This document shows, piece by piece, positions 21,001 through 24,567 of a DNA stretch of 64,000 nt; within the stretch, counting starts at the first letter, position 1, and every line of letters begins with the position of its first letter. The position numbers are program-made. The DNA is from Candidatus Fervidifonticultor secundus (GTDB lineage Bacteria; Sysuimicrobiota; Sysuimicrobiia; Sysuimicrobiales; Humicultoraceae): contig JAVKIP010000002.1 of the NCBI GenBank assembly GCA_031459385.1, forward strand, positions 96,355 to 160,354. The letters run 5' to 3'.

Positions 21001-24000
21001 TGGCGCGGCAATGTCCGTGGCGGCCTCCCTGGCGGCCCGCTGGTTCGATACCCGGCGAGGACTGGTGCTGGGCCTGGCCGGGGCGGGCATGGCAGGCGGC
21101 CAGCTGCTCATCGTGCCCCTGGTCATGGCCGTGACGCTGACGTGGGGCTGGCGCATGGGTTACCTGGGGCTGGGGATCGGGTTCCTCGCGGTCATCCTGC
21201 CCGTGGTGCTCCTGCTGGTGCGCAACGATCCCCAGGACGTCGGGCTCCGGCCGTTTGGTGCCGCCGCCGACGCGCGGCCGGTCACCGCCGCGTCGCGCGC
21301 CGCCGCGCGGACTGGAGTGCGCGACGCGGCCCGTACGGTGCCCTTCTGGCTGCTGGCCGGATCGTTCTGGGTGTGCGGCTACACCACGTCGGGGCTCGTC
21401 CTTACCCACCTGGTGCCCCACGCGACGGAGCATGGCTTCCACGCGGGTCAGGCGGCCCAGGCGCTGGGCCTCATGGGCGCGCTGAACATCCTGGGCACCG
21501 TGGGGTCAGGCTGGATCTGCGACCGATACGGCGCGCGCGCGCCGCTGGCAGCTTACTACCTGCTGCGGGGCCTGTCGCTGGTCTTCCTGCCCTTCGTGGG
21601 TACCGCGCCAGGGTTGTTTGCGTTTGCCGCCGTCTACGGGTTGAACTACATTTCCACGGTTCCGCCTACCACGGCTCTCACGGCCCAGGTCTACGGACGC
21701 TACTCGGTCGGTGAGCTCTCGGGCTGGATCTTCTTCTCCCATCAGATCGGGGCGGCTGTCGGCGCGCTGGTGGGCGGGGTCTTCTACGATCGGTTCGGGA
21801 ACTACGTGCTGGCGTTCCATTCCGCCGCGGCACTGGCGCTGGTCGCCGTGGTGATGGTCCTGGCGATCCGCCCCGAGCCGCTCGGAGGATCGGCCCGCCC
21901 GCCGCGCCCGCAGGCCGTGCCGGCGCCCGCGGGCGGTCGCCCGCACGGGGTGGTCGTGACCGACCGCCCGGTCGTGGTCCGCGCGAGGCGCTGATGGACG
22001 CGGCGTTCCTCTGGCCCTCGGCGCTGTGGCTGCTCTGGCTCGTGCCCGGGGTGGCGCTAGCCTACCGCCGGGCGCGTCGGCGGGCGCCCGCCGGCCAGGT
22101 CATGTTTCCGCACGTGGGCTTGCTGGCCGAGGCCGCGGGCCATGCGCGGCCCGTGCGCCAGCACCTGGCGACGGCGTTATTCCTGGCCGCGCTGGCGTTC
22201 GTCGTAACCGGGCTGGCCCGCCCCCAGGTACCCTTGCCGGTGCCGGCCGACCGTTCGGCGATCGTCCTGGCCATCGACATCAGCGGTAGCATGCGGTCCA
22301 CGGACGTGCTGCCCAACCGGCTGGCGGCGGCGCAGGAGGCGGCGCGCGCATTCCTCCGCACGGTGCCGGCCAGTGTCCGCGTGGGCCTGGTGAGCTTTGG
22401 CGGGTACGCGTCATTGCTCGTGCCGCCCACCACCGAGCGCCAGCCGCTGTTCGACGCGATCGACGGGCTGCGCTTCATCCGCCGGACCGCGATCGGCGAG
22501 GGGTTGCTGGAGGCGGTCGCCGCGCTTCCGGGGCGCGTGCGCGCCCATCCCGATGGTACGCTGGCGGCGCGGCCGCCCGGCCCGCTGCCTCCCGGCGTGG
22601 TGATCCTGCTCTCCGATGGCCGCAGCAACACCGGTATCGACGCGGTGCAGGCGGCGGCCATCGCCCGCCAGCAGGAGGTCGTCGTCTACACCGTCGGCGT
22701 GGGGCAGCCGCAGACTCCCGACAACGCCTGGACCATCGGTGGCCCGCTGGACGAGGCGGAGTTGCAGGCGGTGGCGCGGGAGGCCGGCGGCAAGTACTTC
22801 CGCGCCACCTCCGCAGCAGGTCTGCGGGAGACCTATGAGCGCCTCGCCCGCGCCGTCGGGTGGGAGCGTCGGCCGCAGGAAGTCACCGGAGTGGTGGGGC
22901 TGCTGGGGGGGCTCGCCCTCGCCGCGGCGGTGGCCGTCTCCGGCGTGCTCACGCACCGGCTGGGCGTTCCGTAGCTGCCACAGCGGCCCCTCGCGCAGGG
23001 CCCGCGTGCAATTCCTCCGATGTCGGTCTGCGAGTATTCCATGAACCCACGGGGGCGCGCGCGCATCCGTGGCTGTTGCGCGTGCGCCACCCGGAGGCTA
23101 TGCTGGAAACAGCACCGAGAGGCCGCAGCCTTCCGGGGCAGGGTGAGACGCTGGATGACGGCGTCAATTCCCGATCGGCGGTAACAGCCCGTGAGACCGG
23201 CGCGGAGCCGGTCGTGGCCCGGTGGAACTCCGGGGCCGACGGTAGAGTCCGTATGAGGTGAAGGCTGCGAGGTCCTGGCGCGTTCGCACCGCCCCGGGGG
23301 ACGCCCGAGTTCGGGCGTCTTTTGCTTTGCGCCAGAAGGAGCCGACGATGGTGGCTGGTACGCGTCGCACGACCGCCCTCCTGCTGGCGGGCCTCGGCCT
23401 GCTGTTGGCCCTCCCCCGGCCGGCGCCCGGCCAGGCGCTGGAAGATCGGCTGGTCGTGATGACCCCCATCCCGCGCGAGGTCGCCGATACCGTGGCCGAC
23501 CGCTTCGCCGAGCACGCGCGGCAGCGGTACGGCGCGCCCCTGCGGCCGACGCTGGTGTTCCTGGGCGGTCCCACGATGTATGCCCGCGTCCTGGAGTGGC
23601 GCGGCCGCCCTGATGCCGATCTGCTGTGGGCCAGCGAGGCTGAGGTGCTGGACGACCTCGTCAACCGTCGGCTCCTCGTCCTCCACGAGCTGCCCGAGGC
23701 GCTGGTTCGGGACGTCCCGCAGGCGATCGGCGGGCCCCGGGCGATCCCGTTGCGCGACGGTCGCGGCTACTGGATCGGGACCGCCCTGACGCCCGCTGGC
23801 ATCGTGTACCACCCACGGCTGCTGCGGCGCCTGGGCCTCGATCCGCCGCACGACTGGGACGACCTGCTCGACTGCCGCCTGCGAGGCCAGGTCGTGCAGA
23901 CCACGCCCGACCGCTCCGCGACGAACCACAGCTCGCTCGAGGTGATCCTGCAGCTCCGCGGCTGGCAGCGCGGGTGGGAGTGGGCCCAGCGGCTGGCCGC

Positions 24001-24567
24001 GACGACCGGCATCTACGTCACTCGTAGCCGCGACGTGCCGACGTTCGTGGCGCGCGGCGAGTTCGCCGTGGGCTTCGCCGTGCTCAGCTACATGGCGTTC
24101 CAGGAGGTGCTCGGCGGCCACGATATCCGCTTCGTGAGCCCGCCCTACGCCTGGATCTCGCCGGCGCCGTCTGCCGTGCTGGCCGGTGCCCGGTCGCCGC
24201 GTGCCGCCCGCGCGTTCCTGCAGTTCCTCCTCAGTGACGAAGGGCAGCGGCTCATGATGGCTCACGGGCTGTTTCCGATCGTGCCGCGCTTCAAGATGGA
24301 GGGCCCACCCGGGTCCGTCGCCGCGCAGGCCGCGACGTTCGCCGGCATGCGGTCGTTCTTCGACCGGCCCGTCCGGACGATCTACGACGACGACCTGGCG
24401 CAGAAGCGCTACCAGGAGGTGAATGAGCTCTACCGCAAGCTCGTCTTCGAGCGACACGACCAGCTGAAGCGGCTGCACTGTCCCTGAGACCGTCGCGCAC
24501 GGCAGAGGCTGGACATGCCTCTGCCGGTGACTATAATGTGAACCGGAACGAGGGCCGTTAGCTCAAC

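Follow-up and report, generated by a model that had tools for sequence, protein, structure and literature searches.

In Candidatus Fervidifonticultor secundus an FMN riboswitch aptamer stands before a lone gene for a substrate-binding protein (SBP), and on balance we think it probable that the product is an FMN-repressed protein that captures a flavin, most plausibly FMN, and uses the translocator of a paralogous ABC importer. Riboswitch-guided discovery has been the source of most bacterial riboflavin importers. The locus lies in a window of 64,000 nucleotides, the whole stretch of DNA that was analysed, and had been singled out in an earlier note, the interpretation of which is partly supported by the present analysis: that the SBP binds a flavin or serves its uptake is the best-supported reading, with a putative ligand.

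The riboswitch leader and its single gene

The host genome contains three FMN aptamers, two on contigs C8 and C46 and a third, at C12:119479-119622, that precedes the SBP gene. As the earlier note had reported, this third aptamer (window positions 23125–23268, + strand) scores 70 bits and lies before a gene for a protein of 379 residues; it matches the Rfam model RF00050 over its whole length (model positions 1–138; 70.0 bits, E 1.1e-14), the gathering score being 66.2. Orthologous leaders score 62.2–71.6 bits, several of them slightly under the cut-off, and one that is cut by a contig end scores 55.7. The P1 stem pairs 23125–23133 with 23260–23268. In an alignment of seven orthologous leaders the core is invariant, whereas the P2 and P3 stems vary in sequence and length. 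The pairing of P1 is kept in 100% of cells, one of its pairs being compensatory. The junction motifs GGGG, CGGCGG, CCGAC and the A of GUAUG are all present, and we take these motifs to contain the ligand-contacting bases of structure 3F2Q. The contacting nucleotides are given as G10, G11, G32, G62, G84, A48, A85 and A99 in the available text of PMC6298564.

The aptamer is followed by an expression platform (23275–23335, +), recognized from the sequence, RNA folds and covariation, in which a long-range helix surrounds an intrinsic terminator. The terminator hairpin (stem 23300–23307/23312–23319, loop AGTT) runs into the T-run TTTTGCTTTG at 23320–23329, and is enclosed by the pairing of CTGGCGC (23275–23281) with GCGCCAG (23329–23335), the 3′ arm of which directly abuts the ribosome-binding site GAAGGAG read from the sequence at 23335–23341 (+). 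P1, the terminator and the long-range helix are jointly 94.6% paired, with four pairs changed on both sides, a number reached in 1 of 500 shuffles; three of these four belong to the long-range helix. The aptamer and its platform are real and under structural selection. The leader hairpin is plain in both the sequence and the folds, although it is absent from the output of a consensus terminator scan. When P1 was forced, the ribosome-binding-site region was paired. The RNA folds revealed no convincing antiterminator, and the terminator was present in every predicted state, whether or not P1 was imposed. We propose that high cellular FMN would occupy the aptamer and allow P1 to form, whereupon the terminator, together with the helix that encloses it beside the ribosome-binding site, would switch the gene off, and that the SBP would be expressed when FMN is low. 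The aptamer, the terminator and the covarying helices are seen directly, and we infer the OFF direction and the exact switching pairings.

The SBP gene (23348–24487, +, with its ATG at 23348; supported by translation, Pfam and an AF2 model) begins after a gap of 79 nt from the aptamer end and is followed by tRNA-Lys(CTT) at 24552–24627 (+). This downstream neighbour is conserved, being found 3′ of the SBP orthologue at loci L005, L006, L008–L012 and L102. The tRNA gene has a strong promoter-like site of its own (24510–24537) and is outside the riboswitch-regulated unit, which comprises one gene. Within ∼5 kb upstream lie genes for a TPR/MerR protein, an MFS transporter and a VWA/BatA protein, and within ∼5 kb downstream are genes for a Memo-like protein, tRNA-Leu, tig, clpP, clpX and lon. 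None of the neighbours within ∼5 kb on either side is an ABC permease or ATPase gene, which bears out the earlier description of a lone SBP gene next to tRNA-Lys. The SBP gene is alone at every locus seen, and no biosynthetic or catabolic partner gene is linked to it at the loci inspected. The MFS gene, two genes upstream, was considered as a partner and rejected, its conservation being confined to the genus.

The binding protein, its clade and a candidate translocator

Residues 1–30 of the SBP form a signal-like segment ending in ...PGQA, and the mature part has the class II (cluster D) fold of the AfuA/P5PA/FbpA group. The Pfam matches (SBP_bac_11, SBP_bac_6, SBP_bac_1 and SBP_bac_8) all exceed their cut-offs, with SBP_bac_11 at 63.7 bits (cut-off 25), and the NCBIfam matches are weak and of the phnS2/sfuA type. 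By sequence, the best matches in the PDB are P5PA (2.8e-15), which binds PLP, and AfuA (3.6e-12), which binds sugar phosphates; VcA0625 is also matched. A Foldseek search with the AF2 model (pLDDT 93.2) placed VcA0625, a G6P binder, first and P5PA second, followed by AfuA (E 2e-21 to 5e-20), with target-normalised TM-scores of 0.83–0.85 for AfuA and VcA0625 and with iron binders behind. FbpA, FutA and HitA are fold relatives, and another fold match, 6lkg, is an SBP-like sensor of a two-component system. The nearest solved relatives bind phosphate esters rather than iron, and the sequence and fold matches describe a family that binds varied organophosphates and phosphonates. In AfuA and VcA0625 (PDB 4R72–4R75, 8X1A) the phosphate is held by Ser, Thr and Gly at helix N-termini; in the SBP, residues aligned to the phosphate-holding positions of AfuA and P5PA are kept (G73, S190, T192 and S227). 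Residue by residue the conservation is partial: Thr37, Ser147-Gly148-Thr149 and Ser183 of P5PA align with Gly74, Ser190-Ala191-Thr192 and Ser227. The triad that defines AfuA, His205/Asp206/Glu229 (PMC4546632, in its available text), is replaced, via the P5PA alignment, by Ser247/Tyr248/Ser271, and a hexose phosphate is therefore unlikely as the ligand.

Together with its orthologues the SBP forms a tight clade (group A) within one Armatimonadota family of hot-spring bacteria. Group A is monophyletic (SH-like support 100, stem length 0.26) and, in the midpoint-rooted tree, is sister to 58 of the 91 group-B-like sequences. That the pairing with the aptamer is conserved, as the earlier note had claimed, is now documented in 15 genomes and two metagenome contigs. 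Seven of the nine group A genomes in the first set have a full upstream aptamer; in the other two it is cut by a contig end (G019, unpublished) or represented by the 3′ half and terminator only (G005). Both group A metagenome loci have it, and of eight further ‘second aptamer’ loci fetched from family f1, seven lead into a group A SBP and one into pdxST. No aptamer was found at the eight paralogue loci (L013–L020) or at 20 non-group-A metagenome loci, three of which have no upstream DNA and one only 177 nt. The pairing is specific to group A.

Group A also appears to have been remodelled mainly around the ligand cleft. Of 18 fixed differences between groups A and B, seven fall within ±2 residues of positions aligned to AfuA/P5PA contacts (59 of 351 residues; hypergeometric p 0.019), and the two consensus sequences are identical at 11 of 20 contact positions versus 224 of 331 positions elsewhere. 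These 20 positions were fixed by alignment to the published AfuA/P5PA contacts, and replace an earlier pocket list (9/31 identical) that was dropped because it had partly been picked once the differences were known. Group A has lost polar residues conserved in group B (E273, R306, Y150 and Y197) and gained the aromatic residues Y267 and W269, and the site aligned to the phosphate-binding Thr/Ser37 of P5PA and AfuA is Thr in 90 of 91 group B sequences and Gly, Ser or Ala in group A. The predicted docking face, identical at 31 of 42 positions, shows no more change than the remaining sequence.

The earlier note was right that no permease or ATPase gene is adjacent, but a candidate partner does exist: ∼36 kb upstream, on the same contig but beyond the window, a full ABC operon begins with a paralogue of the SBP that is 58% identical to it. 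This operon encodes the paralogous SBP, an ABC ATPase (TOBE_2), a fused permease of 574 residues and a HAD-IIA hydrolase; the ATPase and permease genes are at C12:83.7–86.2 kb. GDPD, GlpD-like, DAGK and acyltransferase genes are nearby, and betaproteobacterial homologues of the operon adjoin GlpK or GpsA. Group A is read as a duplicate, arisen in one Armatimonadota family, of the SBP of a glycerophosphate-type importer. An orthologue of the permease (≥75% identity) is present in 14 of 16 group A genomes; none was found in G007 (96% complete) or G012 (93% complete), though both have the SBP, so that the partner is either not universal or was left unassembled there. A docking model of SBP residues 29–379 on the permease gave an ipSAE of 0.76 (runs 0.70, 0.76 and 0.77; best of three controls 0.00), a pass that indicates likeness and is not proof that this copy binds, because solved structures exist for SBP-importer complexes of a similar kind and the SBP encoded in the operon is itself 58% identical to the modelled one. 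At least 95% of the contacts agree between runs, and the partner pLDDT is at least 87. The ipSAE mark is reached by 116 of 157 solved complexes and by 2 of 215 mismatched pairs.

We propose that the SBP is exported to the periplasm, as its signal-like N-terminus suggests, that, as a member of the AfuA/P5PA branch, in which phosphate esters are held at helix N-termini, it binds a phosphate-bearing flavin, most likely FMN, and that it would hand this ligand to the paralogue's translocator, the fused two-domain permease with its TOBE-type ATPase. Translocators of the AfuABC/VcA0625 type likewise consist of a fused permease and one ATPase. The closest parallel for a shared translocator is P5PA of the P5PAB system of Actinobacillus pleuropneumoniae (PDB 6WCE), of the same fold group and the top PDB sequence match, whose ligand is a phosphorylated vitamin cofactor. 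A paralogue (54%) of the sugar-phosphate binder AfuA, P5PA depends on the AfuABC system for its ATPase (PMC8427247, available text), much as the SBP is here proposed to rely on the group B translocator. The two proteins are, however, only ∼17–20% identical, P5PA retains a permease gene of its own whereas the SBP has no adjacent ABC gene, and the available text of PMC8427247 describes no riboswitch for P5PA, unlike the SBP gene.

Among flavin importers, RibXY is SBP-dependent and under an FMN riboswitch, and in Deinococci a monocistronic ribY has an FMN riboswitch with its permease presumed to be elsewhere (PMC4418817, available text). RibY, however, is a COG0715 (sulfonate/nitrate/taurine-type) SBP, and the present protein falls in another SBP cluster. 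ECF-RibU and the spirochete system RfuABCD resemble the proposed system in taking up riboflavin through a binding component, but neither component is related to the SBP: RfuA is a lipoprotein from a separate SBP family, and RibU is an S component integral to the membrane. The earlier statement that described riboflavin importers use other families holds for those named in the available text of the 2015 survey (PMC4418817): with Pfam matches to SBP_bac_* families only, the SBP has no homology by Pfam and NCBIfam to RibU, RibM/PnuX, RibN, ImpX, RfnT, RibXY, RibZ, RibV or RfuABCD.

Genes that share the leader and the identity of the ligand

The aptamer of the SBP leader is a distinct, lower-scoring subtype (‘type II’) that differs from the ribD aptamers at conserved junction positions (GAU to GGC and GGAUGGGAGA to GUAUGAGGUGA). 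A type II aptamer lies upstream of the ECF riboflavin S component RibU in at least 11 genomes of family f2, with G034 as a possible 12th in which RibU is assigned by position only, and in the same order it also lies upstream of pdxST, which encodes the vitamin B6 synthase. The SBP leader, terminator sequence included, is nearly identical to the pdxS-pdxT leader of sister genera (G003, G011, G013 and G024) and of G046. Since G046 pairs aptamer-pdxST with aptamer-SBP where G040 and G051 pair it with aptamer-RibU, the SBP occupies the slot of RibU. Displacement of RibU by the SBP was nevertheless rejected as a clean pattern, because group A genomes carry intact RibU-like proteins: the ‘partial’ PF07155 matches in these genomes are intact proteins with an insertion. 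Such an S component of 204–215 residues, without a riboswitch, is present in six of the nine group A genomes checked (the G019 copy abuts a contig end) and represents a possible flavin importer already in the carriers; among the genomes checked it is missing only in genus g1, and a PF07155 search of the host genome gave a single, spurious 28-bit match elsewhere in the genome. A riboswitch-controlled ribD is present in all SBP carriers, for which flavin uptake would therefore be optional. Because pdxST is found under the same leader type, control by an FMN riboswitch alone need not mean a flavin function in this lineage.

A serious rival to FMN as the ligand is PLP, or another B6 vitamer, because de novo B6 synthesis is missing from nearly all carriers and PLP is what P5PA, the nearest sequence relative of known structure, binds. 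FMN riboswitches in this order would then couple B2 status to B6 supply, acting on pdxST in some genomes and on the SBP where pdxST has been lost, the SBP being specific to the capture of PLP and having allowed its carriers to lose PLP synthase; we consider both the ligand and this scenario possible but doubtful. PdxS occurs in 1 of 16 group A genomes (G046) and PdxJ in none of 41 genomes, including nine group A genomes searched, so that the carriers are predicted B6 auxotrophs in need of an importer. The near-identity of the SBP and pdxST leaders fits this scheme, as does an FMN riboswitch before yaaDE (pdxST) in Thermaerobacter, noted but unexplained in the available text of PMC4418817, and the polar losses and aromatic gains of group A would also be compatible with a pyridine ring that carries CH2-O-phosphate directly. 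However, strict exclusivity of PdxS and the SBP, which held across the first 41 genomes, was broken by G046; as that genome has both genes under aptamers, the SBP is not a simple replacement of pdxST. An in-situ swap was likewise rejected, the loci not being syntenic (heme genes flank pdxST, with no tRNA-Lys), and since both PdxS and the SBP are missing from 17 of 41 genomes and pdxST loss is common in the family, the near-exclusivity carries little weight among related genomes. The ring residues Tyr103 and His203 of P5PA are Ala146 and Ser247 in the SBP, although at ∼20% identity another mode of holding the ring is possible, and the sugar-phosphate binder AfuA is about as similar as P5PA. Moreover, the characterised transporters under FMN riboswitches in the available text of the 2015 survey all carry flavins (PMC4418817). 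A search of the host genome for B6 salvage (PNPOx_N, Phos_pyr_kin) gave only weak flavoprotein-family matches and a ThiD-type kinase, and does not discriminate between flavin and PLP.

Other readings have less in their favour. It is unlikely that the SBP binds another phosphate ester of flavin metabolism (a ribityl or other polyol phosphate, or a precursor or degradation product of riboflavin), or has retained a ligand resembling glycerophosphate, with the riboswitch merely linking expression to flavin status. The varied organophosphates and phosphonates bound by the family and the gene context of the paralogue, which points to glycerophosphate or a glycerophosphodiester, are consistent with such a ligand, but the differences between groups A and B at cleft-mapped positions argue against an unchanged one, and no biosynthetic or catabolic gene is linked to the SBP. 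FMN-aptamer variants reported in 2019 control transporters with uncertain, flavin-derived ligands (PMC6298564, available text), yet the type II aptamer, in a comparison at the level of motifs, keeps the junction G-runs that these variants mutate. Less likely again is a flavin-binding SBP with no part in ABC import, serving to store or shuttle flavin in the periplasm or to sense the ligand for a membrane receptor. Its solitary gene, the two carriers without the proposed translocator (G007 and G012) and the sensor 6lkg would accord with this, whereas repression by FMN fits the pattern of supply genes, the predicted docking face is conserved to the same degree as other parts of the protein, the docking model scores above its controls and the translocator co-occurs in 14 of 16 carriers. 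Public sources name the protein ‘iron(III) transport system substrate-binding protein’, and FbpA, FutA and HitA are among its fold relatives, but a ferric-iron binder tied to flavin status by iron-flavin cross-regulation is very improbable. FbpA-type proteins ligate the metal through His/Glu/Tyr/Tyr or a multi-tyrosine site, and His205/Asp206 of AfuA, which we take to be equivalent to the paired iron-binding tyrosines of FbpA, are Ser247/Tyr248 here. Organophosphate binders outrank iron binders in both the sequence and fold searches, the context of the paralogue is glycerophosphate metabolism rather than iron, and AfuABC was itself once misannotated as an iron uptake system (PMC4546632, available text).

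Proposed vitamin capture in a hot-spring lineage

A full-text search of a limited library found no link between an FMN riboswitch and this SBP family or the Armatimonadetes. Known riboflavin importers do not use the family of the SBP, which is still publicly labelled as iron transport. If the ligand is FMN, the system would be a new route of flavin capture that takes the phosphorylated cofactor directly, and the SBP would be the first FMN-specific member of the AfuA/FbpA fold group, feeding a translocator common to a glycerophosphate system. It would then offer a clean natural case in which a duplicated SBP has been adapted to a vitamin and still works with the translocator of the SBP it came from. 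If the ligand is PLP, the locus would reveal a regulatory connection between B2 status and B6 supply in organisms mostly without B6 synthesis; it would represent a B6 importer under riboswitch control and would for the first time account physiologically for the long-puzzling association between FMN riboswitches and pdxST. With either outcome a widespread SBP subfamily would have its annotation corrected, and the study of vitamin exchange in hot-spring communities would gain an experimental entry point.

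The aptamer, the leader and the lone gene

The earlier note described an FMN aptamer followed by a lone solute-binding protein (SBP) gene and tRNA-Lys, with no adjacent ABC gene, and this arrangement was right in all details checked (Rfam match, gene order and neighbours). The aptamer, one of three FMN aptamers in the 3.3-Mb genome (59 contigs), lies at 23125-23268 on the forward strand and matches the Rfam FMN model over its whole length with 70.0 bits (gathering score 66.2). On the same strand follow a GC-rich hairpin (stem 23300-23307/23312-23319) and then TTTTGCTTTG, a ribosome-binding site (GAAGGAG, 23335-23341) and the SBP gene (23348-24487, ATG at 23348), which encodes 379 residues with a signal-like N-terminus ending in PGQA. 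No ABC permease or ATPase gene is present among its neighbours, which encode a TPR/MerR protein, an MFS transporter and a VWA/BatA protein upstream, and a Memo-like protein, tRNA-Leu, tig, clpP, clpX and lon downstream. The tRNA-Lys(CTT) gene (24552-24627), 3' of the SBP gene, has its own near-consensus sigma-70-like promoter directly 5' of it (24510-24537; TGGACA, 16-nt spacer, TATAAT; 11 of 12 matches), the sole such site within the 2.1 kb scanned. A full-length LigD with phosphoesterase, ligase and primase-polymerase domains is encoded a few kb upstream of the unit (16193-18868, reverse strand).

Nine genomes in the homologue survey carry an orthologue of this SBP, hereafter group A (the window's genome, G001, G002, G005, G007, G012, G015, G016 and G019). 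A complete aptamer precedes the gene in seven of them (62.2-71.6 bits), and in G019 (unpublished) it is cut by a contig end. G005 has lost the 5' half of the aptamer but retains the 3' half, with the terminator, before an intact SBP gene (locus L043, 5800-5990, G005:C4), a natural riboswitch lesion; just upstream of the remnant is an unrelated sugar-type ABC operon with an SBP and two permease genes. Both metagenome contigs with a group A gene also have the aptamer. A scan of the 94 genomes available for the phylum turned up eight more 'second' aptamers in the family, followed, according to tblastn, by a group A SBP in seven cases (G041, G042, G043, G045, G046, G047 and G049) and by pdxS-pdxT in the other (G046), although these loci are a biased sample of SBP genes because they were selected by aptamer. 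No aptamer was found at eight paralogue loci (L013-L020) or at 20 non-group-A metagenome loci, of which three have no upstream DNA and one only 177 nt. G019 is one of the 16 group A carriers and is likewise included in the counts for the aptamer, the translocator, PdxS and the RibU-like protein, and G010 (unpublished) enters negative tallies only; the conclusions are unchanged without both.

Structural constraint on the evolving leader is evident from aligned orthologues, in which the aptamer core is invariant and stems P2 and P3 vary in sequence and length. In a seven-genome alignment, three helices (P1, the terminator and a long-range one) are together 94.6% paired; four pairs are altered on both sides, a number that one of 500 shuffles reached. 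The long-range helix joins CTGGCGC with GCGCCAG, with the terminator inside and the ribosome-binding site abutting. No convincing antiterminator could be derived from leader folding, since the terminator was present in every constrained fold. By analogy with its riboswitch class, FMN would turn the SBP gene off.

Origin of the SBP and a candidate translocator

Homologues among 40 related genomes form three tiers: group A orthologues (73-88% identity, eight relatives), group B paralogues (56-65%; one in the window's genome, C12:82170-83297) and a third tier at 34%. The same gap recurs in a large protein database, with 25 clusters at 68-95% and the next at ≤61%. In a FastTree phylogeny of 117 sequences, all group A members form a single clade (support 100, stem length 0.26), and with midpoint rooting it is sister to 58 of 91 group-B-like sequences, the other 33 falling outside. 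The group B gene heads an operon encoding the SBP, an ABC ATPase with a TOBE_2 domain, a fused two-domain permease (∼574 residues) and a HAD-IIA hydrolase. This order was verified in L034, L046 and L047, and in L044 as far as the contig end; for L036 and L037 the ORF listing gave SBP, permease and HAD, the ATPase frame not being listed. Surrounding genes belong to glycerophosphate metabolism (GDPD, a GlpD-like dehydrogenase, a DAGK/YegS kinase and an acyltransferase), and betaproteobacterial homologues (49-51% identity) adjoin GlpK or GpsA. We infer that the cargo of group B is glycerol-3-phosphate or glycerophosphodiesters and that this operon's SBP gave rise to group A by duplication within the lineage. 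The genome's third SBP (34% identical; L035, 6348-9465, G000:C7) has its own fused permease (628-residue ORF) beside an Lhr-type helicase; no ATPase gene was observed next to it.

An orthologue of the group B permease (≥75% identity) occurs in 14 of the 16 group A genomes; the search did not recover it from the other two, G007 (96% complete) and G012 (93% complete). Docking of SBP residues 29-379 on the 574-residue permease, modelled with custom alignments, gave an ipSAE of 0.76 (median of 0.70, 0.76 and 0.77; best of three controls 0.00), a mark that 116 of 157 solved complexes attain, as do two of 215 mismatched pairs. The runs share at least 95% of contacts, with partner pLDDT of at least 87. 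Because solved structures of such complexes exist and the operon's own SBP is 58% identical to the orphan, the model suggests that the orphan SBP still resembles a protein able to dock on this permease, docking itself being a prediction. The predicted docking face is identical between the groups at 31 of 42 positions, conserved like the rest of the protein. Direct precedent for borrowing from a paralogous system is provided by P5PAB, which, in the available text of PMC8427247, requires the ATPase AfuC; the group A SBP would borrow the group B translocator.

A type II aptamer subtype with a mixed regulon

Alignment of 40 aptamers of the order separates type I (79-103 bits), which precedes ribD, from type II (55-72 bits), in which several conserved junction positions differ. 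Two separate ribD genes in the window's genome each follow a type I aptamer (C8:10088-10243 and C46:3630-3776; L001 and L002), and one of them could be another organism's given the estimated contamination of 5.5%. Type II aptamers precede the group A SBP, pdxS-pdxT, and ECF RibU or another ECF S component. The pdxS-pdxT units occur in at least seven genomes of the order (G003, G011, G013, G024, G040, G046 and G051; L087 778-2551, G011:C379; L088, L089, L091, L092, L160 and L165) and share the terminator of the window's leader. Family f2 has the aptamer before RibU and then a PurM/ThiL-like gene in at least 11 genomes, and G034 is a twelfth by position only (L090 267-2086, G040:C180; L096; L093; L164, L166-L171, L173 and L175). 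The PurM-superfamily protein (∼340 residues) falls under the HypE, ThiL and SelD cut-offs and could be an unrecognised kinase for imported riboflavin. A RibU-like S component of 204-215 residues in genera g4, g6 and g11 has no riboswitch (L142 1145-1789; L143 to L147) and a ∼30-residue insertion relative to the 182-residue form in G003.

G040 and G051 each have near-identical aptamer cores before RibU and before pdxST, and so type II aptamers presumably sense one ligand; the presence of RibU under such an aptamer argues that this is a flavin. The motifs that probably hold the phosphate- and ribityl-contacting guanosines look intact in type II. In the FMN variants of Atilho et al., adenosines replace these guanosines (PMC6298564, available text). 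For the B2-to-B6 regulatory link, the only other trace is an unexplained remark, in the accessible part of a 2015 survey (PMC4418817), on an FMN riboswitch before yaaDE (pdxST) in Thermaerobacter. PdxS occurs in 15 of 41 genomes (G000-G040). Most of the order, including the near-closed G002, appears auxotrophic for vitamin B6, and no B6 importer was identified in these genomes.

Ligand and significance of the SBP

The protein matches Pfam families SBP_bac_11, SBP_bac_6, SBP_bac_1 and SBP_bac_8, and NCBIfam phnS2- and sfuA-type models below threshold only. Its relatives are publicly labelled 'iron(III) transport system substrate-binding protein' or 'extracellular solute-binding protein', and AfuA likewise carried a misleading iron label until it was characterised (PMC4546632, in the text available). 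Iron is a very improbable ligand: the nearest solved proteins by sequence are P5PA, which binds pyridoxal-5'-phosphate (PLP) and is the top PDB match (2.8e-15), AfuA, which binds hexose and heptose phosphates (3.6e-12), and VcA0625, and ferric-iron binders rank below all three. The AlphaFold2 model (117 homologues in the alignment, mean pLDDT 93.2) is likewise best matched in Foldseek by VcA0625 (a G6P binder), P5PA and AfuA. Some other phosphate ester is unlikely.

PLP itself has a modest chance. Among the 16 group A genomes one has PdxS, and PdxJ was not found in any of 41 genomes, which predicts that the carriers are B6 auxotrophs; the SBP leader is near-identical to the family's pdxST leader, terminator included, and the PLP binder P5PA is the top sequence match. 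However, 17 of 41 genomes lack both PdxS and the SBP, the co-occurrence counts come from related genomes rather than independent observations, pdxST and SBP loci share no synteny, and the ring-contacting residues of P5PA are not conserved. A flavin is, judged from sequence and gene context, the probable ligand by a modest measure. G046 combines aptamer-pdxST with aptamer-SBP where G040 and G051 combine it with aptamer-RibU, so the SBP takes the transporter's slot in the regulon. Against a flavin, all carriers retain ribD under riboswitch control, and an intact RibU-like protein, with no riboswitch, is encoded in six of the nine that were checked. The positions that align with phosphate-holding residues in P5PA and AfuA are largely conserved (G73, S190, T192 and S227), which in a phosphate-ester-binding family favours FMN over riboflavin. 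Group A departs from group B preferentially near positions mapped by alignment to the cleft: of the 18 fixed differences, seven fall within ±2 residues of one of the 20 contact-aligned positions (p 0.019), and the consensus sequences agree at 11 of these 20 versus 224 of 331 elsewhere. Group A has lost several polar residues that group B conserves (E273, R306, Y150, Y197 and T74) and has acquired aromatic ones (Y267 and W269).

That described riboflavin importers use other families, as the earlier note stated, is borne out by the available text of the 2015 survey (PMC4418817), where this SBP family is absent from the nine transporter families. A full-text literature search, with incomplete coverage and excluding supplements, found no paper linking an FMN riboswitch to this family or to Armatimonadetes. 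The group A SBP is a candidate for a riboswitch-controlled vitamin-capture component that exists as an orphan and comes from a protein family new to such a role.
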